Of a DNA stretch of 64,000 nucleotides, positions 1,538 through 58,404 are shown in pieces; position 1 is the first letter of the stretch, and each line of letters starts with the position of its first letter. Under the pieces are notes generated by a model that saw only the letters and a program-made list of their open reading frames with translations, had not been told where the DNA came from and ran no database searches. The position numbers were made by a program, and so were the translations under genes. The stretch is from assembly GCA_965248435.1 (NCBI GenBank), contig OZ252100.1, positions 5,088,001 through 5,152,000 of the forward strand, in the 5' to 3' direction. The DNA comes from Candidatus Latescibacterota bacterium (lineage in GTDB: Bacteria > Latescibacterota > UBA2968 > GCA-2709665).

Positions 1538-1633
1538 CGTCTCAATCCTTTCTATGCGTCGTTTACGAATCTTTTACGATCGTGATGGTACAGCCCCGTT
1601 CGTGCATTGTCAAGGGGTTGAACCTTCTCTGGC

Positions 1634-3001: not shown

Positions 3002-3198
3002 GGAACCGTCTGGTTTATGAGATAGGGGGAATCAAAGAGGAACAAGATACCTAAGTCCCTTGAAGTTTCCAATCCTTCCCATCATCTTACACGGGAGCAC
3101 CGGACCCTTGACAATCGAAGATGCGAGCGTGATATTCAGAGCCTCGAAACCTTTTTTGCAAGCCGGATTCGGCAGGATTCAAGGACGGAGGACGGAGG

Positions 3199-4200
3199 AT
3201 GAAAGCGGTGCGCTTCCTGGGAGACCGGAACCTGGAAATCGCTGAGTTTCCGGATCCGAGCGCAGGACAGGGCGAAGTCGTCGTCCAGATGAAGGCAGCC
3301 GCGGTCTGCGGCAGCGACCTGCACGGCTACCGGAGCGAGCAGGCCTGGCCGGTTATTCCTGGACACGAACCGTGTGGTGTGGTGGCAGAGACCGGTCCCG
3401 GGGTGACGAGATTCCAGGAAGGGGATCGGGTGATCGTCTACCACATCCAGGGGTGCGGCTTCTGCGGCACGTGCCGAAAAGGGTATCCGATGTATTGCAA
3501 AGAGAAGCAGGGCTACGGCGGGGACCGACACGGATCGGATGCCGACCTTGTCCTTGCGGCGGAACGGAACGTGTTTCTCCTGCCGGACGACATGACGTTC
3601 GCAGAGGGGGCATTTCTTGCGTGCAATGCGGGCACGGCTTACCAGTCGGCCCTGGAGCTTGACCTGACCGGGGAAGATACGGTGGTCATTTACGGGCTGG
3701 GTCCTGTCGGACAGTGTGAGATCGTGGTGGCCAAAGCGTTCGGGGCGAGGGTGATCGCCGTCGACCCCGTGGCCGAACGACGCAGGCTTGCAGAGGCGGT
3801 GGGTGCGGACGAGGTGCTGGACGGCTCGAAGGAGGACGTCGTCGACAGGGTGAAGGCGCTAACCGGCGGGGAAGGCCCCCCAGCGGCCTTCGATTTCACG
3901 GGCGTCCCTCAGGCACGGCAGAACGCGCTCGATTCCGTGTGCCCGTTCGGGCGAGTCGGGCTGATCGGTATGCCCTGGTCGCCCGAGATTTCCTACCGGG
4001 GTCACGGATACATCAAGGTTACGGCGAACTGGATCTTTCCCTCGACTGCCTACGAGGAGATCGTGGCGTTTTTCAGGAGAAACCGACTGCCGTTGGACAG
4101 GATCATCACGGATCGTTACCCGATTTCCGAGGCCGAGCGGGCGTTTGAAGTCTATGACCGGCACGGAACGGTGGGTAAGGTTTTGTTTGAATGGCCGTAG
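3199..4200 (+). CDS. Zinc-binding (MDR) alcohol dehydrogenase
   Basis: CGSDLH, GHE, CGFCGTC...C and GLGPVG motifs; GGAGG RBS. Confidence 0.92.
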   Translation: MKAVRFLGDRNLEIAEFPDPSAGQGEVVVQMKAAAVCGSDLHGYRSEQAWPVIPGHEPCGVVAETGPGVTRFQEGDRVIVYHIQGCGFCGTCRKGYPMYCKEKQGYGGDRHGSDADLVLAAERNVFLLPDDMTFAEGAFLACNAGTAYQSALELDLTGEDTVVIYGLGPVGQCEIVVAKAFGARVIAVDPVAERRRLAEAVGADEVLDGSKEDVVDRVKALTGGEGPPAAFDFTGVPQARQNALDSVCPFGRVGLIGMPWSPEISYRGHGYIKVTANWIFPSTAYEEIVAFFRRNRLPLDRIITDRYPISEAERAFEVYDRHGTVGKVLFEWP

Positions 4201-4438
4201 GTAAGTGATTCGTGGATCGTGAATCGTCGTTCGCAATCCAGACATCGTAGAGGCATGCCCTACAGGTCATTTGGATCGCGAGTAATTGGGTTCGAATAGG
4301 GAACCACGATACCCGCTTTTACGGTACCCGGTACCCGTGTTTTGGTTCCCCGGTACCCGGTTCTTACGATCCACGCGATCACTAGAAATGGCGCGGTATA
4401 CTTCGGAGTGAAGATCGGAAGATAGGCCAGGAAGAAAC

Positions 4439-5098
4439 TCACTCAACAGGCCGATGGTCCGGAGGCGGCGAGTAGGGCCGCGTGACCTCGACTTCGTACT
4501 CCGAATCTGCGATGAGCCCGGCCCGGTTCATGAGAGACAGAAGACGATTCCTGGCCCGCAGAGCGGGGTCTGGATCACTCAGGCGGGGCGCATTCTGCGG
4601 GCTCAGGGCGAGATGACACAGGAGGAGGGCCTCGCCCAGGTTCAATCGGTCGTGTGCGATGCCGAAGTAGACGCGGGCCGCTTCGGCGAAGCCCTGGATG
4701 GGGCTGCCATTCACGCTGCCCACGAAAGCCCGGTTGAGGCAGAACGCAGCCAGGGTTTTCCTGGAATAGCCGTGTGCGAGGAGTGCAGCGTAGCCGATCC
4801 TCCTTGTGGTCTGTTCGACCTCGCTTCCTTGCTCGACGATCAGCCTGGCGAAGGTCCCGCTTAAGTCGGGGAGACCGAGACGCGGGCTTCCCATCGCCCT
4901 GGCGAAGCCTGGATGATGGAAGGCCTCCAGCGCACGCAAGAGGGGCCCCGCGAAGGCGGAATAGGGGAGGTCGTTCGGGGCGGGCTCCAGCACACGGTCC
5001 AGTTCCTGAGAAAAACTCAACAGGACGAGACCGACGAACAGGGAGAAGATGATCACGAACGCAAGAAGAAATGCGAAACGGGTCGCGTTGTTTCTCAT
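4439..5098 (-). CDS. Membrane-anchored transglycosylase-domain protein (degenerate motifs)
   Basis: N-terminal TM; GFAEAARVYFG, LNLGEALLL...SP and ARNRLLSLM...GLI resemble the GT51 C-terminal motifs. Confidence 0.65.
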   Translation of the reverse strand: MRNNATRFAFLLAFVIIFSLFVGLVLLSFSQELDRVLEPAPNDLPYSAFAGPLLRALEAFHHPGFARAMGSPRLGLPDLSGTFARLIVEQGSEVEQTTRRIGYAALLAHGYSRKTLAAFCLNRAFVGSVNGSPIQGFAEAARVYFGIAHDRLNLGEALLLCHLALSPQNAPRLSDPDPALRARNRLLSLMNRAGLIADSEYEVEVTRPYSPPPDHRPVE

Positions 5099-21837: not shown

Positions 21838-22557
21838 TCAGCTAAACTTGTAGACTTTGTGCTGCTCTGCCCATCGCACGCCGGCCTTCTTCGCCTGACT
21901 GCGGAAGTTTCCGTGGTCGTCGGGGTAGTGCATCAGATAGATCTTCTTGCGGATCTCCTTGGGCAGCGTGGCGAGTTCATCCAGGCTTGCGTGGATCCCC
22001 CCCTTGAAGAACTGGCAGTCGTGGAAGATCGCCTCTGCCGTCGAACCGTAGCCTCGTAGCATGCTCGGCATGAACTGAGTGTCACCCGAAAAGAGGATGC
22101 GATTGTCGATCATCAGACCGCAGCAAAACTTTTTCGGCACGTGGAAGGTCGGGATGATCTCGAACCTCGTGCTCTCAATCTCAAATTCAGTCGGTTCCTC
22201 TATCACATGAAAATACCCGTCGAGCTCCATTTTTCCGCTGTCGATATCCTCGAGGCCTCCACGGAGAGAGTTTTCCCACAGCGTGTCGATCAGCTCGTGG
22301 GGAAGATGGAGCTTCGGTTTTCTCCCCCCGAAGAAAAACCGGTTCAAGAAAGCGCATTCTTCGAGTCCGCCGATGTGATCAGCGTGCGTGTGCGTGATGA
22401 AGATGTGATCGATGTCTTTGAACGAGCGCCCGGTATCGTGGAGGCTGCGCCCGGCAGAGGCCCCGCAGTCGATCAGGATATTGCCGTTGACGAGAAGGTT
22501 GGTCTGGTAATGTTTCTTCGCAAAGGCGCTGCCAACGCCGAGGAATTCTAGCGTCAT
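21838..22557 (-). CDS. MBL-fold metallo-hydrolase
   Basis: THTHADHIGG, SGDT and LMHY. Confidence 0.9.
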   Translation of the reverse strand: MTLEFLGVGSAFAKKHYQTNLLVNGNILIDCGASAGRSLHDTGRSFKDIDHIFITHTHADHIGGLEECAFLNRFFFGGRKPKLHLPHELIDTLWENSLRGGLEDIDSGKMELDGYFHVIEEPTEFEIESTRFEIIPTFHVPKKFCCGLMIDNRILFSGDTQFMPSMLRGYGSTAEAIFHDCQFFKGGIHASLDELATLPKEIRKKIYLMHYPDDHGNFRSQAKKAGVRWAEQHKVYKFS

Positions 22558-30852: not shown

Positions 30853-31901
30853 GGATTCAATGACTAAGTGCAACACTTGGACTTGAAGACTTCAGCTGGT
30901 GTTTTGAAGTTAAGACATTTTCTTGGTCGGTTGTTGATCCGGTTCTGAATTTTCTTTAACTCGTGTTTGCTGACCTTTGAGAAGTCTGTCTTCTTGGGGA
31001 GGTATCTGCGGACCAGACCGATAGCGTTTTCCACAGCGCCTCGCTCCCAGCTGTGGAACGGTTTGCAGAAATAGGATTTGGTGCCAAGCACCTCGTTGAC
31101 CCGTTGATGTTGGCCGTTTTCGGATCCGTTGTCATATGTGATGCTCTTCCTCATGTGGGGAGGATGTCGCCCAAGGCGTCGATTAATCGCTTCGGCGACC
31201 TCCGAGGGTCCGTTCTTTGCCAGCTTAGCCAGGTGTAGGTATCTCGACGATCGCTCAAGACAAGCGCCAACGGCCTGTTTGCTCTCACGAGAGATGATGG
31301 TGTCGGATTCCCAGTGGCCAGGTTGTTTCCGTTTTTCGATGTAACGGGGACGTCGATCGATCGAAATACGGCCTGGAATGTGGCTTTCCCGGTGTTTTCG
31401 GGTATGCCACCGCGGCTTTCGTTTTTTGTGAGCTCGGGATAAGCAAGCAACCAGATCCCGCTGCTTGTGCACCTTTGGATCGTAGATATACTGGTAGATG
31501 GCTTCGTGGCTGATACCCGCGCTCGGACGCTCCTCGGGAAGCCTCCCAGCGATCAACTCGGGAGACCATCCTTGCTTGAGTTTGGTCTCGACATATCGCC
31601 GGATAACCGGATTCTTCAGCCGTTTCCGCTTGCCGGCCTCCCGCTTACGTTTCTCAGCCCTTCTGTGAGCCTGGAGGCCCGAGTAACTCTCAGCTATCGG
31701 GGACGGATTACGTTTCAACTCTCTTGAAATCGTGCTGGCGCTCCGGTCAAGGGCCTTGGCAATATCTCTAAGGCTTGCACCAGTGGCTCGACAAAGCGCA
31801 ATCTGCTCGCGTTCGTCTATCGTAAGATGCTTGTAATTGTTTCCCATACACTTAGGATAGGACAGTTGCTACCCTAAGTGTTGCACTTCCTTATTGAACT
31901 C
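30853..31901 (-). mobile_element. IS30-family insertion sequence
   Basis: 26-bp imperfect terminal inverted repeats: GGATTCAATGACTAAGTGCAACACTT (30853-30878) and the reverse complement of 31876-31901, GAGTTCAATAAGGAAGTGCAACACTT. Confidence 0.9.
30864..31847 (-). CDS. IS30 transposase
   Basis: STISRELKRN HTH, WSPELI, GHWESDT, ITYDNGSE and WERGAVEN. Confidence 0.96.
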   Translation of the reverse strand: MGNNYKHLTIDEREQIALCRATGASLRDIAKALDRSASTISRELKRNPSPIAESYSGLQAHRRAEKRKREAGKRKRLKNPVIRRYVETKLKQGWSPELIAGRLPEERPSAGISHEAIYQYIYDPKVHKQRDLVACLSRAHKKRKPRWHTRKHRESHIPGRISIDRRPRYIEKRKQPGHWESDTIISRESKQAVGACLERSSRYLHLAKLAKNGPSEVAEAINRRLGRHPPHMRKSITYDNGSENGQHQRVNEVLGTKSYFCKPFHSWERGAVENAIGLVRRYLPKKTDFSKVSKHELKKIQNRINNRPRKCLNFKTPAEVFKSKCCT

Positions 31902-46580: not shown

Positions 46581-46796
46581 TTAAGCTGGTTCTACGTCCA
46601 TGTAGTCGGCTTCGGAGCTTGGCTAGGGAATGGGTTGGCCATCTTCCTTGAGCCCCTCCAAGTGAAATTCAATCGCTTCCTGAATCAGTTTTCTAACTTC
46701 CTCTCTGGTCTCGGCCGCTGCAACACAACCCGGGAGATCGGGAACGTATGCGCCGTAGGAGGCTTCGCCTTTTTCAATGATGATTGCGTATTTCAT
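46581..46796 (-). pseudogene. hicB: HicB-family antitoxin with premature TAG at codon 58
   Basis: MKYAIIIEKGEASYGAYVPDLPGCVAAAETREEVRKLIQEAIEFHLEGLKEDGQPIP*PSSEADYMDVEPA*. Absent from the ORF track. Confidence 0.8.
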
Positions 46797-47089
46797 AGCT
46801 TCGATCCCGCCACTTTTAGTCTTCGAATTTTTCTATCTGGTTTGCTCACTGCGAGTTCGTAAGAGGTCTGAAGGTTCAACCAGAACCGGGGCGTATTGCC
46901 AAACGCGCCGGAGAAAAGCCAGGCCGTTTGCGGCGTGATCCCCCTCTTTCCTTTTACGACCTCGTTGACTCTTTGAATGGGCATGCCAATGTGCTCGGCG
47001 AATGCCACCTGAGTCATCTCCATCGGCTTCAGGAATTACTCAAGAAGAATCTGTCCTGGATGTGTCGGGATTCGGTTCTGTGGGGTCAT
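46793..47089 (-). pseudogene. higA: HigA-family antitoxin with premature TAA at codon 18
   Basis: MTPQNRIPTHPGQILLE*FLKPMEMTQ...RGITP...FWLNLQ; GGAGG RBS before 47089. Confidence 0.85.
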
Positions 47090-47223: not shown

Positions 47224-47898
47224 CTATGTCGCTCGATCGCTCTCTAACTGACCATCTTTGAGGGTCACGACCCTTTGCGCGCGTCCGGCGATCGATTCGT
47301 CGTGCGTGACGAGGAGGATCGTCTGACCCCGCTCGTGGAGGTCCTCGAGTATCTGCATAATCTCGTCGCCAGTACGGCTGTCCAGGTTGCCTGTGGGCTC
47401 ATCGGCTAGGATGATCGAGGGATCATTAACGAGCGCACGTGCTATAGCGACGCGCTGGTGCTGACCTCCAGAGAGTTCGCTGGGTCGGTGCGACATTCGG
47501 TCTTTCAGGCCCACCATCTCAAGTACGATCTGTGCTCGATCACGGCGGTTCTTTCTGGGGGATGCCGAATAGATGAGCGGTAATTCAACGTTCTGAAGGG
47601 CGGTGGCCCGGTTTAGCAGGTTGAAGGTCTGAAATACGAACCCGATCCTCCGGTTCCGGATCTCTGCAAGGACATCGCCGTTCATTCTGTTAACACGCTC
47701 ACCGCCCAATTCATAGCATCCAGAAGTAGGGGTATCGAGACATCCGAGGATGTTGAGGAGCGTGGACTTGCCCGATCCGGACGGCCCCATTAAGGCGACA
47801 TACTCGTTCTGGGAGACGTTCAGATCGATCCCCTTGAGGGCGTGGATGGACTCGACGCCCATTCTATAGGTCTTCTGTATCTTTTCGAGACGGATCAT
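47224..47898 (-). CDS. ABC transporter ATP-binding protein (LolD/MacB type)
   Basis: [14 protein letters not shown] and ADEPTGNLD. Confidence 0.95.
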
Positions 47899-47908
47899 TC
47901 TTGAGGTG

Positions 47909-49135
47909 TCAATCGTATCGCAGCGCCTCGACAGGGTGGAGGCTCGATGCCCGGGCAGCGGGGTAGACTCCGAAGAATACGCCGATGCCCCCCGAGAAGA
48001 GGATGGCCAGTCCGATAGAACTCAACGAGACTACACTTGAAAACGATGCCTCGGAAAAATGCGCTATTGTCGCAGAACTCCCAAATCCGAGCCCCAGGCC
48101 GCAAACAACACCGAGGAGACCGCCGAATAGGCTGAGGACAGCGGACTCGACGATAAACTGTAGAAGAATGTGCCTCCGTTTAGCGCCAAGAGCTTTGCGT
48201 ATGCCGATCTCTCTCGTGCGTTCCGTGACGGAGAAAAGCATCACATTCATGATTCCGATCCCGCCGACCAACAGGGAAATGCCCGCTACCCCGCCGGCCA
48301 CCAGCTTTAGGACCAGAACGATGCGTTCCAGATTCTCAAGGATGCTCTCGCCGGTCACGATCAAGAATTCGTCGCCGTGTCTATGGAACCGTTCGAGCAC
48401 CATCCGGATGTCCTGAGCAACGCGGTGAACCTCGGCTCCATTGTTCAAGTAGACAAACACTACATCATAGTGGTCATTTCCCGTGATTCGTTTTTGGATC
48501 GTACTCACAGGAACAACGATCTGTTTGCCCCAATCCTCTCCGAAGAGCGTTCTGGGTTTCATCACGCCGATAACGGTATAGCGTTCGCCGTTAAGCTTGA
48601 TCTCTCGGCCAATGGCTTCCTGCTCCCCAAACAGTTCCTCGTCAACCTTGTTGCCGATCACACAAACCCTGCGCCACTCCCTCACGTCCCGGTTGGAGAG
48701 GAACCTGCCCTTGCTCAGGGCCCAGTCCATCATCCGGTGATAGCCCGGTAGGGTTCCCAGGATCTTCAAGGTGGTCGACGCTTTCTGGTAATGCACCTGG
48801 GCATTCCAACTGACCAGAGGAAAGGCCGCATCGATTTCGTCCGATCCGGCAGTGATCGCTTCAATGTCTCCGACTGTCAGCGTCTCCCGCCAGGCACGTC
48901 GAACCCGCCGCCCACCCTTGATGGCCCAGGGACCTGGCGGCTGTACGAGTATGAGGTTCGCGCCGCTGACCTGGACAAATTGCGACACGACGCTGTAGCG
49001 GAGCCCCTCACCGATCGACACGACGCCGACAACGGAGCCTATGCCGATTGTGATACCGAGAATCGTCAAGAGGGAGCGTAACGCGTTGGCATGCAGTTGG
49101 GAAAGCGCTACGGCAATAAGCTCAAGAATGTTCAA
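47909..49135 (-). CDS. MacB/FtsX-type ABC permease
   Basis: [20 protein letters not shown]...[17 protein letters not shown] and PVEALRY. Confidence 0.95.
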
Positions 49136-49198
49136 CAGGGTCTCTTCGTTTCGAATGATTGGTTTCTTTGTGACATTGCTGTGGTCTGATTCTACACA

Positions 49199-49225
49199 AG
49201 AGACGCCCTGCCATGGCGTCTCTAC
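49199..49225. repeat. REP-like palindrome at the RAYT 3' end
   Basis: Minus strand reads GTAGAGACGCC-atggcag-GGCGTCTCT. Confidence 0.8.
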
Positions 49226-49841
49226 AGCAACATCACCGTCGGTGGTGGTGGGTTTGGATAATGCTCATTCTGTTGCCACGTCATCGGATTATTCGCGATG
49301 TACCTTCTGAGAGTGTCCAATGAATCTTGATTCCAAATGATCCGATCATAAAACCCGGGTTGCCACGCGAAATGGTGATATCCCATCTTGCGAATTCGTT
49401 TTGTACAATTCGATTTAAATTGACCGACGATCGATCCCGGCGAATTTGGCATCCAAAATCGTGATGATCGAACGCCATTTGTAGAGACGCCCCGCCGGGG
49501 CGTCTCTAAGGTGGGTCGGGCGCCGGGGGGCGGCGGCCGGTTTCTGCATCGGCCGGGGTGGTATCACTCAGGATCTGTATGATCCCGTGCATATGGTTCG
49601 GCATAACGACCCAAGCGTCCAATTCTACTTTCGGCCGTATCCGCTCCGTTCTTTTCCACTCGTCCGCGACGATTTCACCGATTTCTGAAAATCGAATCTC
49701 TCCATTTGAGATGTCTCCAAGGAGACAGGCATGATCCTTCGTGCAGTTCGTGACGAAATACAAACCGGCCTTTGAGTAATCCCATCCGTGGAGACGTGTC
49801 GACTGGATCCGATATTTTTGACTGAAAAGATCATCCTTCAT
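49222..49841 (-). mobile_element. REP-associated tyrosine transposase (RAYT, Y1 HUH), frameshifted
   Basis: RL.GWDYS.AG.YFVT and MPNHMHGI in one frame; LETPRRGVST...SIVGQFKS...WQPGFYDRII...YIANNP in another. Internal REP at 49481-49508. Confidence 0.88.
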
Positions 49842-49864
49842 CGTTGGTTCTTGTCTTGTCCTTT

Positions 49865-51073
49865 CTACCTCTCCTCGGTTTTTTCTCTGTAGATTTTCCC
49901 GGCGTTCGCAGCGACCTCATCATCCAGGACAAGGCCGGACAGGATCTCAAAGCGCACCTCCGACCTCAGGCCAAATTGAATCTCCTCCTCGATAAATCCC
50001 TTGGCCTCTTTTCGGTAGACGATCGAACGGCCGCGTGTGCCTTTTTTGTCGCTTTTTCTCGCCTCCACGCCGAAGTCCTCGTACACTGCCTCGATGGGCA
50101 GATAGAGTGTTGAGTCGCGCTCCGCCAAGATGATGTCGATGTCGCAGGACATGCCCTGCCGGAAACGGGGCTCGCGGTCCAGGATGCGGATCTCGGTGTG
50201 GAAGGTGATGATGTTGGTGCCCTGCAGGATCTCACCGACGGGTACAATCCTGTGGACCTCTCCTGTGTAGCTCGTGTCGGGATAGGCGCCTACGATGATC
50301 TTGACCCGCTGCCCGGGCTTCAATCTGCCCACATCGACTTCGCTGATGTCTGCTTTGACTGTCATCTGGCTCGGGTCCCCGATCTCGAATATCTTTTTAC
50401 CCGTTACCGTAGAGAGGGTGCCTGATACGACGACCTCACCGACTTCGACAGGACGACTAATCACGATTCCAGGAACGGGTGAGGGCAGGCGGACGTAATC
50501 CAGCTTCTGATCTTTCTTTGCCGGAGGAGCACCGTTCGTGTGCCGAATATTCGTTCGGGTCTCGATTATTTCTAGTTCAAGCTTCGCAAGTCTGTAGGCG
50601 TTTTGTGACTTTTGGAACTCATCCCGTACGCTTTCGACTTCTTCCTTCGAAATTAACCGGCGTCCAAGCAGCCGTTCCTTTCGGACTAGCCTCTTCTGGT
50701 TCTGCTCCAGGTCGATTCGCACCTGATCAACGGCGGCACGTTTGTTGTAGAGCTGTAGCGTCTGGTTGGGATCGGGTTCGATGATGGCGAGGATATCTCC
50801 ATCCTCTACCACATCGCCAGCTTCCGCGAGGAGCTGGACGATTTCACCGGATACGGTCGATTTGACCTCCACGGTTCGCACGAACTCGATCCGTCCGGTC
50901 TCTTTTAGCTGTTCGATGACCACGCCTCGTTTAACTCTGGTCGTCGCCACGTCTTCTACTGGATCCTTTCTTCTTTCCTCCCGGGTCAGGTTGAGGGTAA
51001 CGATACCCGAGACCAGAACGACGCCAAGGAGACCGAAGAGGAGCTTGCGCTTTCGGGACCACGTTTTCGCCAT
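49865..51073 (-). CDS. Periplasmic adaptor (MFP/MacA-like)
   Basis: N-terminal TM, lipoyl halves (VKSTVSGEI, SPVPGIV), coiled coil and ISEVDV. Confidence 0.92.
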   Translation of the reverse strand: MAKTWSRKRKLLFGLLGVVLVSGIVTLNLTREERRKDPVEDVATTRVKRGVVIEQLKETGRIEFVRTVEVKSTVSGEIVQLLAEAGDVVEDGDILAIIEPDPNQTLQLYNKRAAVDQVRIDLEQNQKRLVRKERLLGRRLISKEEVESVRDEFQKSQNAYRLAKLELEIIETRTNIRHTNGAPPAKKDQKLDYVRLPSPVPGIVISRPVEVGEVVVSGTLSTVTGKKIFEIGDPSQMTVKADISEVDVGRLKPGQRVKIIVGAYPDTSYTGEVHRIVPVGEILQGTNIITFHTEIRILDREPRFRQGMSCDIDIILAERDSTLYLPIEAVYEDFGVEARKSDKKGTRGRSIVYRKEAKGFIEEEIQFGLRSEVRFEILSGLVLDDEVAANAGKIYREKTEER

Positions 51074-51114
51074 CCATTTGCCTTTACGCCGAGGTGAGAT
51101 CGAAGGGTTGTTGT

Positions 51115-51867
51115 TCAGTTCCCCAATCTACCCATCATGCCACCGAGCAGATTCTGGGCGGCGGCAGAAACCAGGAGGTAGATGACCCACAGACCGAAAA
51201 CGAAGTATGCCGCGTGTCTAGTCTCAACACCCGAGGTTATTCCGAGGCCGACAGAGACGAGTGCGAACTGCCAGATCGAAAACACGTTAACCAATGAAAG
51301 GAAGGTGAACAGAAAGCTGCCATGCATCGACTCAGGCAGGAGTAGGCCGGGGCCAAGTTGGACCACTATCGACTTTCTGGCCAATACGAGCGGTACGGTG
51401 ATGATGGCGGCGGGAATGCCCACAAGAGCGCCATAGCTGACAACAGCGAGGGTCTTCTTGTATGTGCCTCGACCGCCGAGCAGGAAGTTGGTAAGCACTA
51501 GAAAGATGCCCGCCTGAATAAAGAGGTTCGCAGCCGAGCCGATTGGAGCGCCAACAAGAGCAGTAATGCCCCCGGCATTCGTCACGCCTTCCAGAACTTG
51601 TGCCCGCTGTTCTTCCGAGAGGTCAGGGTTCTCTTGAAGCTGTTTGCTCATGGCCTCCAGCCCCTCGGTTTGGACAACTGGCATGATCAGGTAGGCAGAC
51701 AGTGCACCTGCAATGGTGACCAGTATCAGCGGGACCAGCCAGTCCTTAAGTCCGACGAACTCGTTGAGCGAACCGAAAGTATTTGCAGGAGAGGTGAACA
51801 CGTTCATCCCCAGTTCAAAAACGCCCATCTGTTGACTGTTTCCTTGAGTTTCTCTCGATTCTTCCAT
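51115..51867 (-). CDS. Yip1-family membrane protein
   Basis: FTSP..TF, five TMs, GTYKKTLAV..Y and NVFSIW. Confidence 0.82.
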   Translation of the reverse strand: MEESRETQGNSQQMGVFELGMNVFTSPANTFGSLNEFVGLKDWLVPLILVTIAGALSAYLIMPVVQTEGLEAMSKQLQENPDLSEEQRAQVLEGVTNAGGITALVGAPIGSAANLFIQAGIFLVLTNFLLGGRGTYKKTLAVVSYGALVGIPAAIITVPLVLARKSIVVQLGPGLLLPESMHGSFLFTFLSLVNVFSIWQFALVSVGLGITSGVETRHAAYFVFGLWVIYLLVSAAAQNLLGGMMGRLGN

Positions 51868-52340
51868 GCCATATCCCCTTGTGTGTGACGACGATCCTTC
51901 GTGGCGCTAGCAGTCTCTATCAAGCAATTGACGTACCCCTCGGCTTGCTAGGCGGTCCGTGTGCTTACCGATACGGGTGACACGGTTGTGAGAGGGATGA
52001 AACTCACCGGCGAGGAGAGCGCCTGTCATAAAAGGGATGCGGTATGGATCTTTCACTCTTACAGATTCAAACGAAAGGCTTTTTCACCTTCAAGTGAGCG
52101 GCAGGTTGCATTACACGACGTGCCGGGGTGTCTATCAAGGGGAACGAGTGCACTTCTTTTCAACAGTTAATTAGACTTCTGGGGAACAAATACAGACCAC
52201 AGAAGGAGGTTCAAGAGCCGGCGGTACGGTGATTGCAGGAATAGTTCTCGAGTTATCTGCAGTGGAAGTGAAGAGGGTGACGCATTCGAGGAGGTGATCG
52301 TGTAGGTAGCACGGTCAATAAGGCGTGGGGAGATGCAGTT

Positions 52341-52955
52341 GTGGACTACGAAGATGACTATCTGATTCTAAACTTGACCCCCTATTTCAATAGTGATGGA
52401 ATTTCTTCCGATGAAGACCGTGCCGACGGATTCTTTACGGCTAACGGATATACCTATGCGGAAGAAGATTTGCCAGCGTCGAATTCGATCCTGGAATGCG
52501 ATGACGTTGTGTTCCGATTTCCTGACAAAAGCGCAGGCCGAGATAATAACATCTCCTTAGAGGGCCAGAAAATTCCGGTTCCTGAGGATCTGTACGACAC
52601 GGTCTACTTCCTTGGCGCGGCTGAAGAGATCAGTTTACGAGAAAACATTCAGTTCGTTTTTTCAGACGGTGGGCGGGAGGAGGCTTTGTTAGGACTAAGC
52701 GGGTGGGGGCTGGGGCGCGAACTCGAATACGGAGAGCGCGCGGCGATTCAATGCGAGGGATACCATATCGTGCGCCCCGTGTCCTACCATCGCTATACGG
52801 ACACCCTCGGTCTTGATCACGGTATTTGGATGCAGAGCGTGTCCATCTCAGACAGACCGTTGGTTGGGATTGAGCTTCCGGATCTTCCGCCGATGCACAT
52901 TTTTGCAATGACACTTCACCGTACAGAGATCGGAAAGTTCCAGAGGAAACAGTGA
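52341..52955 (+). CDS. Hypothetical beta-sandwich-like protein
   Basis: 204 aa acidic protein (LTPYFNSDGIS...FRFP...DNNI.LEGQ.I...YFLGA...HIFAMTL); stop overlaps the next start. Confidence 0.7.
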   Translation: MDYEDDYLILNLTPYFNSDGISSDEDRADGFFTANGYTYAEEDLPASNSILECDDVVFRFPDKSAGRDNNISLEGQKIPVPEDLYDTVYFLGAAEEISLRENIQFVFSDGGREEALLGLSGWGLGRELEYGERAAIQCEGYHIVRPVSYHRYTDTLGLDHGIWMQSVSISDRPLVGIELPDLPPMHIFAMTLHRTEIGKFQRKQ

Positions 52956-53956
52956 AGCGGCTAATTTCAGGTATACCGTTCTGCAATTATCATTATTACA
53001 ACTGCGAACATAGAACATTCGATGTGCTCGTCAGATTTTATGGTTACGAAACGCCGCTCATCCTTCACGCGAATTGGTACTTTTCGTTCCGCAGGCGGGG
53101 CGATGAGAATTTTCAGCTCAGTTCCGGATCGCAGGCCCTCTTTCAAAGTTTGGCAAGATGCGGTATTCAGGTTGTCGTGCATCAGGAGCCCACGATCCAA
53201 GCTGCCTGGGAGCGTGTGGTTTCACAGATTCTGGAAGGACATCCCGTTCCAATCCTGGCAGACCAGAGGCATCTCGAGGACTACTATTTGGTCCGTCAGG
53301 GAGTAGACGGAGGGCACTACGTGATCCTGGACGGTTTTGATGAGGAAAGGAAGACGGTGCACGTCATCGATCCTTCACCCGGGAGAAAGTTTCGAGGAGA
53401 GTTGCCATTTTCCGGTTTCTTCGCAGAGAACGGCAGGATCGATGATGACCGGCCTGGACCTAACTGGTATGAGCTCCGTCTCTCAGAGCCGCGTTGGGCT
53501 CTTTCTGTTGAAGAGGCCGTTAAAACCCTGAGGCAAAACGTTCGTCAAATGCTGCGAGGGAGTGCTTATCTGTCCGATACACTTGTCGGGCTGCAAGGAC
53601 TGCAGATGCTGGCGGAGCAGACGATAGAATGGAGAGATCTAGAGAGCGACGAGGCGCGGTTGCGGCTGAAACACCTGTCAAAATCTCTTAATAATGTCCT
53701 TATGGAACGGGAAGGGCACAGTGATTATCTCAAGCTGGTGGCCCAAGAGATGGATCACCCCGAAGTTGGTATCGTCAGTGAGCAGCTTCGCCACATTGTG
53801 CAAAAGTGGTACGTGTTACGAAATGTCTGTTTAAAGGGCCAGATCAAGGGTCTAGAACAAACGGTCGAGAAACTTTCTGATCGGTTGCGGGAAATCTCAT
53901 GCCTTGAGGAACAGGCGCTGAATCAGTTGAATGGAGTGGTCGGACACTCACGGTAA
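52952..53956 (+). CDS. BtrH N-terminal/DUF4872-like papain-fold (C39-like) protein
   Basis: N-terminal NC, G.PV.I..D, HYVILDGFD and VIDP (putative Cys-His-Asp); helical C-terminus with GLQGL. Confidence 0.72.
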   Translation: MKRLISGIPFCNYHYYNCEHRTFDVLVRFYGYETPLILHANWYFSFRRRGDENFQLSSGSQALFQSLARCGIQVVVHQEPTIQAAWERVVSQILEGHPVPILADQRHLEDYYLVRQGVDGGHYVILDGFDEERKTVHVIDPSPGRKFRGELPFSGFFAENGRIDDDRPGPNWYELRLSEPRWALSVEEAVKTLRQNVRQMLRGSAYLSDTLVGLQGLQMLAEQTIEWRDLESDEARLRLKHLSKSLNNVLMEREGHSDYLKLVAQEMDHPEVGIVSEQLRHIVQKWYVLRNVCLKGQIKGLEQTVEKLSDRLREISCLEEQALNQLNGVVGHSR

Positions 53957-54125
53957 GTTTCCCCGCATTTTGAGACAGCTATAGTACTTGGGTACACGAT
54001 CTTTAGAATGTTTCGTGGGAACAAAGCATGCTTTCAACGGCAGGTTCACTGGATGTTTAAAACCCCCAGATCTGCCCGAAAGCCATAAGCGTATGATGGT
54101 ATGATCAAGAAAGGAGGTGATCAAT

Positions 54126-54350
54126 ATGCCGAAGATGAAACCGAAGCTCATCAAACCCCGGAGACGTGATTGCTCAAATGCGGTAGATGCGTATCTGAGC
54201 GAGTCTCAGCAGTGTATGTTAGGTGCCGCAGCATTGGGCACAGCTACGGCTTTAATGGTAGTTATGACTGGAGGGGCCGGCCTTGCCGTTTTCCTTGCTG
54301 CAAATGCGATAGGCGGCCTTGCGCAGGTATCCTATGTTGTTGCCTGCTAG
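54126..54350 (+). CDS. Putative bacteriocin/RiPP precursor peptide (74 aa)
   Basis: AAGGAGGTGA RBS; basic N-terminus, then an uncharged Gly/Ala-rich segment from Cys30 to the terminal Cys74. Confidence 0.7.
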   Translation: MPKMKPKLIKPRRRDCSNAVDAYLSESQQCMLGAAALGTATALMVVMTGGAGLAVFLAANAIGGLAQVSYVVAC

Positions 54351-54582
54351 GATTCCAGAAATCGGTTGCGAATAGCTTTTCGGTTGTAGATCTGGGGGGA
54401 TTAACTTGCGTTTCTCGGAAATTCGTGACATGTATGGAAAGGCTCGTCCAAAAAAAATAGAGAATGGGCCCGATCGGCTTCGAAGAAGTAAGAAGTGCGA
54501 CATCGGAATGAATGTTCGTCCCAAGGAGCCTTCTTATCGCTTGTCAACAGTCATCCAGAACTGACGATGGAAGCGTCGTACG

Positions 54583-55368
54583 ATGAGATCAACACATCAG
54601 TTTCATTCGCAAAGCGCCAGAACTGCGTTACTCAGCAGTAAGAAGATCTGCATTCTTCTCAAGACGAACTTCCTCCTGGGTAAACGACTTACAGAGTCTA
54701 CTTATGTAACAATCCTACTGTATGCTTTGTTTGGATTCTGCACAGCTATTCTAGGAATGCTCTCTCTAATTGCAAAGCCTTGTTTCTTACACGCCACAGT
54801 TTTTTATATAACCTTGCTTGCTCTGGTGCAGGTACTTGCATTGAGTATTTACCAGTCACGATCGGGTATTTACCTAAGTAGATATAAATTGGGGATCTAT
54901 CCTGTATCTAATCACGCTGTCCTATGGTTTTTGTGGCTCAATGAATTTATCGATCTTAAGCTCATAACACTTCTGTTTCCAATATCCACATGTCTGGCGT
55001 TTCTCATCTATCTTCATCGATTAGGGGCAATTTATTATGCAATTCTCATCGCTATTGTTTACGCCACCTTCTGTTTGTTTCTTTTAATCGTAAGATTGAT
55101 TACTGCGGAATTTGAATGGACGCGAACCCCTGTTTCAATTGGAAGTATCGCTCTCTTTCTGGCAATGGCAGTATATTCTAGTCCAGAGAGAAATCGCCAT
55201 CTAATCCACATTGAAAATTCTTTGAGTGGGCAGACTTTCTTCATCAGTATTTTCGGCGTATTTATTCTAGCCTGGCTATTTCTATATGCATGTGCCTACT
55301 ATCTGATTTCTGCTGAACATTTCAAGGAAATGCAAGCACAAGAAACCTACCACGAAGTGTTCGAATGA
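54583..55368 (+). CDS. Polytopic membrane protein (putative ABC permease/immunity)
   Basis: About 6 TMs, AT-rich; coupled to the next gene. Confidence 0.65.
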   Translation: MRSTHQFHSQSARTALLSSKKICILLKTNFLLGKRLTESTYVTILLYALFGFCTAILGMLSLIAKPCFLHATVFYITLLALVQVLALSIYQSRSGIYLSRYKLGIYPVSNHAVLWFLWLNEFIDLKLITLLFPISTCLAFLIYLHRLGAIYYAILIAIVYATFCLFLLIVRLITAEFEWTRTPVSIGSIALFLAMAVYSSPERNRHLIHIENSLSGQTFFISIFGVFILAWLFLYACAYYLISAEHFKEMQAQETYHEVFE

Positions 55369-56090
55369 GTGCCTGTATGACAAGCCCACGAACAGCGAAT
55401 ATAAACATTCCGTATCTCTTGCGTCTTTTAAGCTCAAACTTGCGTTTGACCTGTCGATATTCGGGAATGAGATTTCCTTTACTTTGGATTTCAGCATATT
55501 GCATTCCTTACCTGGCATATGAAACAACGGGCGTCCCAAACCCTGCGTTTAATTTTATTGCCTTGATCGCTTTAATGTTTTCATGCGAACCGTTTCTTGT
55601 GGATGCCTTAAACGGCGAGGTAAACACGCTTGTTCGATACATTGCCAGCGGCGTGGATCTGGTTTATGTCATCCTTATGAACAATACCATCTCGATCTGT
55701 ATTCTTTGCACCTCCTTTTTGCTCCTCGCCTTGGAGATAGAAATCATCAGCGTGCACTCCGGGAATCCTGAAATTTCCGAGACGACACGGTTTATGGGTA
55801 TGTACCTTTTTGCTGCCATCTTTCCTCTGCTGGTCCTTGGAAACTACGCATCGGTTCTTAGACATTCTCTGGGCATTCGGAGAAACGGAACGCTTTTGCG
55901 TCGAGTAGTATTGAGCACAATTCTAATCAGTTTGGCATCGATTCCCTTTGTGATTTGTGAACTCTTCTTTGACACAGTTTTTGTTACCCTGACTGTGATT
56001 TGTTTGAGTATCGGAACGTGGTATATCGTCAGCATTAGGCACGTAGCCCTTATCGCCCGACAACAGATATTCGATTTGATGGAGCTCTGA
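55365..56090 (+). CDS. Polytopic membrane protein (putative ABC permease)
   Basis: About 6 TMs; abuts the ABC ATPase. Confidence 0.65.
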   Translation: MSACMTSPRTANINIPYLLRLLSSNLRLTCRYSGMRFPLLWISAYCIPYLAYETTGVPNPAFNFIALIALMFSCEPFLVDALNGEVNTLVRYIASGVDLVYVILMNNTISICILCTSFLLLALEIEIISVHSGNPEISETTRFMGMYLFAAIFPLLVLGNYASVLRHSLGIRRNGTLLRRVVLSTILISLASIPFVICELFFDTVFVTLTVICLSIGTWYIVSIRHVALIARQQIFDLMEL

Positions 56091-56879
56091 ATGGCAACAA
56101 ATGCGCTACAGGTAGAGAAATTGAGTAAGCATTATCGCAAGGGTGCCGTCAAGGCGCTGGATCTGCTTTCACTGGATGTCAAGAGAGGACGGATGTTCGG
56201 GGTGGTTGGGCAGAATGGTGCTGGCAAGACAACACTAATTTATATCATCGCAGGCCTTATCCGTCAGACAAAGGGCAGGTTTTTTATTTTTGATGAGGAG
56301 GTCGAACAGACTGATTATCACTATCGCCGCCGCATCGGTTTCGTGTTGGAGCGTCCGATGTATTTCAATAAGCTCACAGTTAAGGAGTATCTAGAGTTCG
56401 TTGCGGGGATGTACGACATTCCAAAGCAGGAAACGCGCCTAAAGATTGAAGAATTGATCGAATTTTTTGATCTACGCCAAATGGCGGATAGATACATCGA
56501 AACCTACTCAAAGGGAATGAAACAAAAGGTATCTCTCGCCGCTGCTATTATTCACGAACCTGATTTATTGATCCTGGATGAACCGTTTGACGGCATCGAC
56601 TTTGCGTCTTCTGAGGAGATCAAGAACCTTCTTTTACAGATGAATGCCAAGGGCATTACGAGTGTTATTACTTCCCACATTTTGGAGCTTGTCGAATCGC
56701 TATGTGATGAGTGCGCCATTATTCACGAAGGACGAGTGGTGTTTCAAAGCACGATGCAAGATCTTGAGGTGCAGCTCCGGAATACTTCCGATGGTACGCC
56801 GAAGTCTTCTCTGAGGGATATTTTTATGCAGATCACGGCGGCTGATCGGAAGCACAAGTCTCTTTCATGGTTGTCGTGA
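56091..56879 (+). CDS. ABC-2-type exporter ATP-binding protein
   Basis: GQNGAGKTT, YSKGMKQK, LDEPFDGID and TSH. Confidence 0.95.
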   Translation: MATNALQVEKLSKHYRKGAVKALDLLSLDVKRGRMFGVVGQNGAGKTTLIYIIAGLIRQTKGRFFIFDEEVEQTDYHYRRRIGFVLERPMYFNKLTVKEYLEFVAGMYDIPKQETRLKIEELIEFFDLRQMADRYIETYSKGMKQKVSLAAAIIHEPDLLILDEPFDGIDFASSEEIKNLLLQMNAKGITSVITSHILELVESLCDECAIIHEGRVVFQSTMQDLEVQLRNTSDGTPKSSLRDIFMQITAADRKHKSLSWLS

Positions 56880-56916
56880 GAATCCATTCGCTTGTTGGAA
56901 TGCCATAACCAATCTA

Positions 56917-58404
56917 TTGAAAATGACCATGTTAAAAGGGATAAAGAACTGCTTCCTCGGCGAATACACTAAGAGCCGTAATGCCTTTGAGCACATATGC
57001 CTTCCGGATGAAGGAAGGGAGTTTCTGAAGCCGTCCATAGAAATCTTTACCCAGGAGGTTTACGACGCCTGTGAGGGCCAAAGAGAGAGGGCAACCTGTG
57101 AATTTCAAATAGGAAATAGGGAATTTGAAGACTCCAAGTTTCGTAAGGCAGCGGCTTCGTACTCGGACTCCTTGGTGGCCCTAGAGAGTTTGTCCGGCTA
57201 TATATCTCGTGGCGTTTCTCTGGTGATGCTTTCGGAGCTTTGCGAAGCGGCCAGGATGTTTGAGAAAGGGTGGGATCTGGCACTTCAACAGCGCTCTCAT
57301 CGGTTTAAAGCAGCAATTGGAATCAACTTGGGCCAGGTTTATGTCGATTTGGGTAGGTTAGATTGTTCCCACAAAATCCTAAGGGACGTTGTTGAGGATT
57401 GTCGCGAGACCGGAGATCTTGATTTAAAAGCGATGGCGCTTGCTCATCTCGCCCTAATGATGTTTGTCAGGGGGTCATACGACGAGGGAATTGAGAGCTG
57501 CAACCTCGCGAGTGAGATTTGTCAAGGAGGAGAAGATGACGCTCGAGCCCTTTTTGCTAAGGGCGTCCTGTTTATGGCAAAAGGGGACCTTGAGGAGGCA
57601 CAAACTGTCTTGCAAGAAGGAACAAGATTGCTCAAGGACCTCAAGTATTCTTACACTGACGCCCGAATTCGGTTACAGCTGGCACATCTCCAGTTGCTTA
57701 AGGGAAAGGGGCAGGAGGCATTGGAGGTTTCTAAGGGCGCCCTTCACGGTTTTCAACGGATCCTAAGTCCACAAGGCGAAGCTCGAACCATAGGATTGAT
57801 TGCGATTATTCGTTCTTCCATGGGGGACACTGAACAAGGACGTCAGCTGTTCCGAAAGGCTCTGGCATTAGACCGCCAGACCGGATATCGACGTGGTGAG
57901 ATCAGACAGCTTCTCAATTGGAGCAAGATCAGCCTTCAACTAGGCGATATTGAAAATGCCTGTACCTTATCGCAGGAGGCTGAGAGGCTTGCTCTGATGA
58001 TCGGTCATACTATCGCGCTTCTGGAAGCTACGCCTTTGCGTGCATTGTCGTCAGGGAATATCTCGGAAATAGATAAGAATACCACTTTGAAAGAATGTTT
58101 GGAATTAAGCAGAACCACTTGTATCTCCGTCGGTGAAATCCAGATCCAGCAGTTTCTTAGTTCCGATTACCTGGGCTGTGGACAGCTGGATGAAGCGCTG
58201 GACTGTTGTCGAAAAGCAGTGGATTTGAGCCGAGATTTGGGAAATCGCGTCGAGCAAGCGAAGTCTCACGGCTTCCTGGCCCAGCTATTGGATCAGAAAG
58301 GGGAGCATCAGCTCGCGGCTGAGCAGGTAGGAATCGCCGAGGCAATGCTGCAAAGTATGGGCATTCCGATACAGCCGAGAGGTCAGGTCCCGTTTCCGAA
58401 CTGA
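56917..58404 (+). CDS. Tetratricopeptide-repeat protein
   Basis: Repeated NLG.VY..LG and A...F.KAL.L TPR patterns. Confidence 0.85.
   Translation: MKMTMLKGIKNCFLGEYTKSRNAFEHICLPDEGREFLKPSIEIFTQEVYDACEGQRERATCEFQIGNREFEDSKFRKAAASYSDSLVALESLSGYISRGVSLVMLSELCEAARMFEKGWDLALQQRSHRFKAAIGINLGQVYVDLGRLDCSHKILRDVVEDCRETGDLDLKAMALAHLALMMFVRGSYDEGIESCNLASEICQGGEDDARALFAKGVLFMAKGDLEEAQTVLQEGTRLLKDLKYSYTDARIRLQLAHLQLLKGKGQEALEVSKGALHGFQRILSPQGEARTIGLIAIIRSSMGDTEQGRQLFRKALALDRQTGYRRGEIRQLLNWSKISLQLGDIENACTLSQEAERLALMIGHTIALLEATPLRALSSGNISEIDKNTTLKECLELSRTTCISVGEIQIQQFLSSDYLGCGQLDEALDCCRKAVDLSRDLGNRVEQAKSHGFLAQLLDQKGEHQLAAEQVGIAEAMLQSMGIPIQPRGQVPFPN

Follow-up and report, generated by a model that had tools for sequence, protein, structure and literature searches.

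AziU3 and AziU2 are the subunits of an enzyme of the azinomycin B pathway of Streptomyces sahachiroi (structures 7WUW and 8GS1), an aziridine synthase described as working by sulfate displacement (PMC12559475). The AziU3/U2 complex has been called "structurally similar but functionally unrelated" to CtaG, BtrH and AsbE, which are papain-like ligases dependent on carrier proteins, and the supplementary table of structural homologs in the same report lists AziU3 and no protein from Latescibacterota or Gemmatimonadota (PMC12865890). A further point of comparison is QhpE of the QhpC/QhpE/QhpF system, which cleaves a 28-residue leader in the cytoplasm ahead of ABC export (PMC7876137). The locus described here occupies positions 47,224 to 58,404 of a 64,000-nucleotide stretch (hereafter the window) of contig OZ252100.1 from Candidatus Latescibacterota bacterium, and encodes counterparts of AziU2 and AziU3 followed, 170 nt downstream, by a gene for a 74-aa peptide with a leader-like N-terminus. 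We propose, at about even confidence, that the locus specifies a new leader-dependent system resembling those for bacteriocins or for peptides synthesized by ribosomes and modified after translation (RiPPs), in which the AziU3/U2-like complex would tailor or cleave the peptide and the ABC-2 and MacAB-Yip1 transporters would serve export or immunity.

An initial annotation of this DNA had read it as a cluster for an undescribed peptide class, and that interpretation was partly supported; the peptides form a family of no described kind. The genes it had listed on two divergent arms were all recovered at the same coordinates in the open reading frame (ORF) list of the window and by Pfam and NCBIfam searches. 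The plus arm contains the following.

52341..52955, plus strand: AziU2-like beta-sandwich subunit, 204 aa; fold and profile match to AziU2
52952..53956, plus strand: AziU3-like subunit with papain fold and helical domain, 334 aa; BtrH_N and DUF4872 matches, residues C18, H122 and D140
54126..54350, plus strand: precursor-like peptide, 74 aa; leader at residues 1-26, Cys30, Gly/Ala-rich hydrophobic core, Cys74
54583..55368, plus strand: ABC-2/DUF5687-like permease A, 261 aa, assigned from Atlas clusters and hydropathy; L001 copy 37% identical
55365..56090, plus strand: ABC-2/DUF5687-like permease B, 241 aa, assigned from Atlas clusters and hydropathy; L001 copy 36% identical
56091..56879, plus strand: DrrA/ABC-2-type ATPase, 262 aa; ABC_tran 9.2e-30, L001 copy 70% identical
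56917..58404, plus strand: cytoplasmic TPR protein, 495 aa; TPR_12 7.4e-25, TPR_MalT 5e-15

The 204-aa protein, which had been left as unknown in the initial annotation, matched nothing in Pfam or NCBIfam but proved to be a homolog of AziU2. Its AlphaFold2 (AF2) model (pLDDT 91.5) was matched by Foldseek to the AziU2 chains of 7WUW and 8GS1 (TM-score 0.84, E 5e-17, rmsd 1.6, 24% identity); AziU2 was the sole good match, the next best reaching a TM-score of about 0.3. A profile of its family, which comprises 25 homologs with 32-97% identity, matched AziU2/Azi28 over residues 5-195 when compared with the PDB (E 1e-26). The 334-aa protein had been called BtrH-like, and it does carry BtrH_N (3e-10) along with DUF4872 (1.5e-8) and Peptidase_C39_2 (1.1e-5), but its closest solved relative is AziU3. 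A profile of 22 relatives matched Azi29/AziU3 over positions 1-298 (E 4.6e-30 and 1.5e-29), and nothing else in the PDB, CtaG and CcbD included, was found below 0.005. Its AF2 model (pLDDT 91.2), with a mixed alpha/beta N-domain and a helical C-domain, was again closest to AziU3 in Foldseek (TM-score 0.72), followed by CcbD (0.65-0.68) and CtaG (0.62), while C39-type peptidases scored about 0.3. An exhaustive search for relatives of this protein returned 88 representatives at E ≤ 1e-3, and a word-index search returned 3 proteins. The proposal that it is a Cys-His-Asp protein was upheld: across 22 sequences H122 is invariant, and C18 and D140 are each conserved in 90% or more. The genes for the two subunits overlap by 4 bp, and those for AziU2 and AziU3 are likewise adjacent and overlapping. 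Because both profile and fold comparisons lead to AziU2 and AziU3, the 204-aa and 334-aa proteins are, as judged from sequence and modeled structure, the counterparts of the two aziridine synthase subunits. Among the homologs of the smaller subunit, one distant member (P0028) has a signal-peptide-like N-terminus, and another is labeled "alpha-L-fucosidase 2" by one source.

Given that AziU2 and AziU3 are the best matches of the two subunits among all solved structures, one could envisage that the locus is a remnant or minimal azinomycin/vazabitide-type pathway, in which an aziridine would be formed on a sulfated amino-acid intermediate as by AziU3/U2. We consider this very improbable. Pfam detected no sulfotransferase, amino-group carrier protein (AmCP), transketolase, nonribosomal peptide synthetase (NRPS) or polyketide synthase (PKS) among 58 window proteins, and the companions in the window are instead a ribosomal peptide and transporters. 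In related loci the conserved partners are an acyl carrier protein (ACP) and a subtilase fusion rather than enzymes of an AmCP pathway. The identity of the window pair to AziU2/AziU3 is just 18-24%, and residues invariant in the AziU2-like family (N17, D19, R27, D29 and E42) differ in part from those of AziU2. The pair is, by sequence and predicted fold, of the AziU3/AziU2 type, yet it lacks the surroundings of an aziridine pathway. Residues 17-32 of the AziU2-like family form an invariant acidic stretch, NNDGISSDxDRxDGDF, which is absent from AziU2 and is a possible metal-binding loop.

A scan with the AziU2-like profile, covering one genome per species, yielded 14 related loci (L001-L014), all from metagenome-assembled genomes of Latescibacterota and Gemmatimonadota. 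Their gene lists were made by greedy ORF picking and may omit genes; the CPBP gene of L007, whose longest ORF overlaps the transposase gene, was dropped, and in L013 a long spurious antisense ORF took the place of two ABC exporter genes. A composition filter applied to every 30-130 aa ORF of the window and the 14 loci retained three, namely the window ORF, L001 13198-13422 and L002 1780-2049 (true start 1798), and each lies immediately upstream of both permease genes or their homologs, which are followed by the ATPase gene. The window ORF opens at 54117 (77 aa), and its likely start is the ATG at 54126 (74 aa), 7 nt past the Shine-Dalgarno (SD) sequence AAAGGAGGTGA, in agreement with the peptide length of the initial annotation. 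A profile of the three ORFs was then applied at E ≤ 0.01 to 3,079 candidates drawn from 5.8 billion proteins, and the resulting family has only five members: the three ORFs and two variants closely related to them, encoded on contigs 612 and 1728 bp long. The five peptides share a leader of the form M-x3-K-x2-L-x-K-P, then [DN]-x-V-x-A-Y-x2-E. A Cys follows 1-8 residues after this motif, the core of 47-57 residues is variable, uncharged and rich in Gly and Ala, an AI[GS]G motif lies near the end, and the C-terminal Cys is invariant. The leader is far better conserved than the core, the identity of which is about 37-43%; in cores of the L001 type Gly and Ala together make up about 45%, Gly alone accounting for 13-16 of 47 residues, and cores of the L002 type hold Pro and Arg.

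The leader motif occurred 4 times in 550,219 six-frame residues, against a mean of 0-0.15 after shuffling; the full pattern had been tuned after L007 was seen, and an untuned 9-residue pattern gave a shuffle mean of 0.1, which tempers the support that the motif lends to our proposal. All four ORFs bearing the leader are preceded by strong SD sites. The fourth, in L007, carries the same motif (KTQLLKNPLHSYRGSPDHVYAYIIE) ahead of roughly 110 aa of unrelated core sequence that is not hydrophobic, and is located just past an HlyD-exporter gene pair and upstream of a CPBP-subtilase-ACP-AziU2-AziU3 array. Because L007 joins the same leader to an unrelated core, the leader is, to judge from these sequences, modular. 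No further peptides were found in the 14 loci, beyond those of L001, L002 and the L007 variant, by the composition filter, a filter for Cys ends and hydrophobic tails, hidden Markov models (HMMs) of the leader and the whole peptide, or regular-expression motifs, and the leader motif matched none of the families scanned. We conclude from these comparisons that the small ORF represents a real and very rare peptide family with a leader-like N-terminus.

The position of the ORF immediately upstream of permease genes in every case raised another interpretation, in which the 74-aa product would be a two-helix membrane protein (a subunit of the ABC-2 pump, an anchor or a regulator), the island would be an efflux and envelope-defense cassette, and the function of the enzyme pair would be unrelated. 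A helical hairpin could form from the roughly 43-residue hydrophobic stretch, which has TGG at its center and follows a basic N-terminus, and the peptide matches no known bacteriocin family. Conservation, however, runs opposite to what this interpretation predicts, as the first 26 residues vary far less across the family than the hydrophobic portion does. The Gly-rich L001-type cores would be poor helix formers, those of the L002 type contain Pro and Arg, and the leader in L007 heads a non-hydrophobic protein. Moreover, the invariant C-terminal Cys, the second conserved Cys and the ResA/TlpA-like enzymes that L001 and L002 encode are in keeping with export of a disulfide-bonded peptide. We therefore judge this interpretation to be improbable.

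The peptide shares with class II microcins and class IIc bacteriocins of the lactobin A/cerein 7B type a Gly/Ala-rich hydrophobic core of about 45-57 residues, a Cys near the start and at the end, a cleavable-looking leader and adjacent ABC genes. Unlike these peptides, it has no double-glycine leader, and there is no C39-ABC exporter, the exporters in L001 and L002 beginning with a membrane domain. In L001 (16052-19929) and L002 (4225-7724) we observed four shared genes missing from the window: those for an MsbA/HlyB-like exporter that lacks a C39 domain (the two copies are 71% identical), a roughly 144-aa protein with a single membrane segment, a ResA/TlpA-like thiol-disulfide oxidoreductase and another protein of the Yip1/YknW type, additional to the first.

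Several lines of evidence connect the peptide with the enzyme pair. The search for the peptide family was independent of the enzyme query and so constitutes a reverse test: all three members with visible context (window, L001 and L002) lie beside an AziU2/AziU3-like pair, and the leader on the other core in L007 is again found in a pair-bearing locus. The order of genes differs among the three loci, which come from two phyla, while the peptide module and the pair remain tightly packed in each. In the window the order is pair, peptide, permeases, ATPase and TPR gene; in L001 no more than 16 nt separate the AziU3-like stop codon from the start of the TPR gene; and in L002 there are 13 co-directional genes from the TPR gene through the AziU3-like gene, the largest gap being 74 nt. 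Among the 14 loci the TPR-peptide-permease-permease-ATPase module was present only in L001 and L002, and the TPR gene accompanies the peptide gene in three of three loci, the window included. A comparison of the window with L001 showed high identity for AziU2 (80%), AziU3 (78%), the plus-arm ATPase (70%) and MacB (80%), and low identity for the peptide (37%), the permeases (37% and 36%) and the TPR protein (38%). This split suggests a conserved machinery that serves a fast-diverging peptide and its specificity partners, which is the pattern expected of a bacteriocin. The gene content, the homologies, the existence of a rare peptide family and its co-location with the pair are established observations.

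The partners of the pair in related loci also point to peptide maturation, as far as their sequence assignments indicate. A Peptidase_S8+DUF1611 fusion is encoded in L002, L003, L007, L008, L011 and L012, and in L002, L007 and L011 NCBIfam assigned it to a QhpE-like subtilase (7.8e-46) and to TIGR04066, "peptide maturation system protein" (2.4e-29), with both matches under the curated cut-offs. The arrangement in these three loci, the fusion followed by a carrier protein, resembles QhpC/QhpE/QhpF and TIGR04066 cassettes; it differs in having no radical SAM partner, and neither the window nor L001 has the fusion. Cassettes of the TIGR04066 kind further include a protein related to ACPs and a precursor that resembles bacteriocins. 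In L007 a CPBP/Rce1-like intramembrane protease (3.3e-17), another partner of this kind, is encoded directly upstream of the subtilase gene. We also observed in this part of L007 (6835-7569 and 5363-6811) that a DDE transposase gene is inserted just before the protease gene and that the subtilase-DUF1611 fusion is split into two ORFs.

One could also envisage two independent systems placed side by side, namely a carrier-protein-dependent pair that makes a small metabolite, reactive or acylated and needing efflux, and an unmodified class II bacteriocin- or microcin-like module, the island being shared only as export and resistance cargo. We regard this as a serious alternative, though on balance doubtful. 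Many of the observations that favor it weigh against our own proposal. An ACP with a GxDS motif is encoded in 7 of the 14 loci (L002, L003, L007, L008, L011, L012 and, in broken form, L014); it adjoins the pair in L002, L003, L007, L011 and L012 and lies further upstream in L008, and since the ACP is the usual companion, a carrier-protein, non-ribosomal pathway would also fit. In L010 an NRPS module (44-4525; PP-binding, Condensation, AMP-binding, PP-binding) is located about 5.5 kb upstream of the AziU2-like gene. The nearest characterized relatives (AziU3/U2, CtaG, CcbD and BtrH) use small-molecule or carrier-bound substrates, not ribosomal peptides, as far as the published account goes (PMC12865890). 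RND pumps typical of small-molecule efflux are embedded in L008, L011 and L014.

The leader peptide was not seen in 7 of the 11 pair-bearing loci within the DNA examined. Five of the seven are truncated upstream of the subtilase or AziU2-like gene (L003, L008, L009, L011 and L012), but in L010 and L013 no leader peptide was found in 10 kb on each side. The forward count of co-occurrence is biased, because the loci were picked by AziU2 homology. No recognized RiPP enzyme (LanB/C/M, YcaO, radical SAM or a protein containing a RiPP recognition element) and no dedicated leader protease was found in the window, and neither an ACP, in a tblastn search with four related ACPs, nor the subtilase fusion or TIGR04066 was found in the 64-kb window or L001. 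The peptides match no known bacteriocin family, the best match being Bacteriocin_IIc (PF10439) at E 0.6 for the L001 peptide only. As to the enzyme, D19, R27, D29 and E42 of the AziU2-like family are absent from AziU2, and AziU3 also retains the Cys-His-Asp positions, so that the triad does not distinguish protease or ligase action from chemistry of the aziridine type. For the peptides we further recorded a DUF6861 match (E 0.009) for that of L001 only and no PF10439 match for that of the window. Co-prediction of the AziU3-like, AziU2-like and peptide chains gave a score of 0.00 against a mark of 0.32, in a run without controls, and counts neither way.

Other observations argue against two separate systems. 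Building-block genes (for an adenylation enzyme, ketosynthase, sulfotransferase or AmCP) are not conserved around the pair, the window and L001 lack even the ACP, and the conserved partners bear names of peptide maturation (QhpE-like, TIGR04066). The tight packing of the peptide module and the pair across three gene orders and two phyla, and the recurrence of the leader within a pair-bearing locus in L007, also weigh against independent cargo.

The distribution of the pair itself is uneven. The AziU3-like gene is present in 10 of the 14 loci: it adjoins the AziU2-like gene in L001, L002, L003, L007, L009, L011, L012 and L013, lies 1.5-3 kb from it in L008 and L010, and is absent in L004, L005, L006 and L014. 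In L010 the partner is about 1.5 kb away, with ORF-poor DNA between. The lone AziU2-like genes of L004 (10001-10606), L005 (9989-10594) and L006 (5322-5927), all from Latescibacterota, lie directly after a DDE transposase gene and between genes for two TPR proteins of about 837 aa, and have no AziU3-like partner. The genome with L005 also carries the pair of L010, and thus has two AziU2-like copies.

Efflux genes are found near the pair in many of the loci. MacAB-Yip1 and ABC-2 systems are present in the window and L001, ABC-2 and the MsbA/HlyB-like exporter in L001 and L002, HlyD and an exporter in L007, RND pumps in the three loci named above and two exporters in L013. In L001 the Yip1-MFP-MacB-ATPase arm, MFP being the membrane-fusion protein, travels with the plus arm, and the genes that flank them differ from those of the window.

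Our favored explanation, the leader-dependent peptide system, can be put in the following terms. The locus would be a horizontally acquired island for production of, and protection against, a rare ribosomal peptide. A translationally coupled AziU2/AziU3-type heterocomplex would recognize the conserved leader and process the peptide at Cys18-His122-Asp140. In one version the complex would cut off the leader, and the window has no other candidate protease; in another it would transfer a group onto the peptide in the manner of the carrier-protein-dependent enzymes CtaG, BtrH and CcbD. In the fuller systems elsewhere, such a group might be supplied by the adjacent ACP, and the leader might be cleaved by the QhpE-like subtilase-TIGR04066 fusion. 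The two ABC-2 permeases and their ATPase would serve to export the product or to protect the producing cell, and removal of the product from the envelope, past the outer membrane, would fall to the divergent Yip1-MFP-MacB-ATPase pump. Because the TPR protein has diverged as quickly as the peptide and permeases have, it probably acts as a partner in specificity or regulation. In L001 and L002 the ResA/TlpA-like oxidoreductase could close a disulfide between the two Cys residues. That the enzyme acts on the peptide, what that action is, and that the product is antimicrobial are what we infer from the arrangement.

A stronger form of this proposal, that the heterocomplex is more than a mere protease and acts as a leader-guided peptide-tailoring enzyme defining a new RiPP class, is put forward only tentatively, and we think it rather unlikely. 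Tailoring might proceed by passing a carrier-borne acyl or aminoacyl group onto the peptide, for example onto the conserved Cys at the leader-core junction, or by an AziU-type ring-forming displacement on a side chain. The CtaG/BtrH/CcbD/AsbE ligases and acyltransferases share the BtrH_N and DUF4872 architecture and the Cys-His-Asp triad with the 334-aa protein, and related loci have an adjacent carrier protein; those enzymes act alone, whereas the window enzyme has an AziU2-like partner and no carrier protein in the window.

The two membrane proteins that follow the peptide had been described as having about six transmembrane (TM) segments each, which is roughly right, as about five clear hydropathy peaks were counted in each. 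A suggested SpoIIM/DUF95 identity was not supported: neither protein, nor their L001 and L002 homologs, gave any Pfam match at E values up to 10. The nearest Atlas clusters, taken as leads, were DUF5687/ABC_export (0.97) for permease A and ABC-2/DUF5687/12TM_1 (0.95) for permease B, favoring permeases of the ABC-2/DUF5687 type. The two permease genes overlap by 4 bp. The downstream ATPase matched drrA (5e-61) and a lantibiotic-protection ATPase family (8.7e-48; 163 versus 310 bits) in NCBIfam, both under the cut-off. With its ATPase and two roughly 6-TM permeases, the plus arm resembles LanFEG-type ABC-2 immunity pumps. The TPR protein is without a hydrophobic segment and has homologs in L001 (38% identity) and L002 (36%). 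No terminator-like site was found on the plus strand between 53957 and 54582.

The minus arm, the intergenic region and an element inserted in the arm are as follows.

47224..47898, minus strand: MacB/LolD-type ABC ATPase, 224 aa; Pfam ABC_tran 5.1e-33
47909..49135, minus strand: MacB-type permease, 408 aa; MacB_PCD 2.2e-43, FtsX 1.5e-20, L001 copy 80% identical
49199..49841, minus strand: broken RAYT/IS200-like tyrosine transposase in two frames, 49506-49841 and 49222-49452
49865..51073, minus strand: periplasmic adaptor (membrane-fusion protein), 402 aa; HlyD_3 4.5e-18
51115..51867, minus strand: Yip1/YknW-like membrane protein, 250 aa; Yip1 8e-16, five hydropathy peaks
51868..52340, no strand: divergent intergenic region, 473 nt separating the start codons of the two arms

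In NCBIfam the minus-arm ATPase matched MacB (6e-80) and LolD (4e-72), both under the cut-off, and its L001 copy is 79% identical; the adaptor matched RND_mfp (2.8e-31), over the cut-off, and MacA (1.8e-34); and the Yip1/YknW-like protein matched YknW_fam (7e-15), under the cut-off (55 versus 110 bits). The arm thus has the Yip1/YknW-like protein, adaptor, FtsX/MacB permease and ATPase of YknWXYZ and As-48EFGH, and is interrupted by the broken RAYT element. By analogy with these and the LanFEG-type systems, a protective role is inferred for the minus-arm and ABC-2 pumps. The promoters of the two arms presumably lie in the intergenic region (51868-52340), where the scan reported no strong match to sigma-70.

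The two RAYT fragments matched REP_Tyr_transpos (1.5e-7 and 1.5e-6, NCBIfam) and Y1_Tnp (9e-4). A REP-like palindrome of 26-28 nt (AGAGACGCC…GGCGTCTCT) is present in two copies, one (49199-49226) just past the downstream, C-terminal fragment and the other (49480-49507) between the two fragments. The element splits the permease gene from the membrane-fusion gene, and the gap between them is about 730 nt compared with about 350 nt in L001; its presence inside the MFP-MacB operon may affect expression.

The GC content at third codon positions was 0.39-0.56 in the plus arm, 0.63-0.68 in the minus arm and 0.75-0.81 in the genes to the right; the plus arm is a single, foreign-looking compositional unit. 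The 58 window proteins scanned (17 from the cluster region and 41 other ORFs) included no LanM, YcaO, radical SAM or C39-ABC fusion, as the initial annotation had said, and elsewhere the window encodes housekeeping functions. The island's left edge (46623-47023) has a short HicB-like antitoxin ORF (5e-14) and an HTH_3 ORF with no toxin recognized, which look like toxin-antitoxin remnants at an insertion junction. Amid the housekeeping genes there are also a metallo-beta-lactamase-fold protein (21838-22557) matching Pfam "Anti-Pycsar protein Apyc1" (1.1e-47) and, where third-position GC is otherwise high, an HTH_38 ORF (30864-31847; 0.59) that may be an IS30-like transposase.

We found no description of this gene combination in the open-access literature, nor, in open-access full text, of the conserved ACP and subtilase-TIGR04066 context of the pair. 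Regardless of whether the pair and the peptide are linked, the 204-aa family once called unknown is now tied to a solved structure, and the AziU2/AziU3 pairing exists far beyond actinomycete azinomycin-type clusters. The AziU3/CtaG/BtrH superfamily is known so far for the azinomycin aziridine and for amide ligation dependent on a peptidyl carrier protein in closthioamide, butirosin and lincosamide biosynthesis; if our proposal is true, this would represent new RiPP enzymology and, in the stronger form of the proposal, the first recruitment of the superfamily to ribosomal peptides, with a RiPP class so far confined to Latescibacterota and Gemmatimonadota. The leader motif would provide a search handle for genome mining that lies outside current RiPP rules, and the locus, if the proposal holds, would count among the earliest peptide-antibiotic systems to be defined in these two phyla, most members of which are uncultured.

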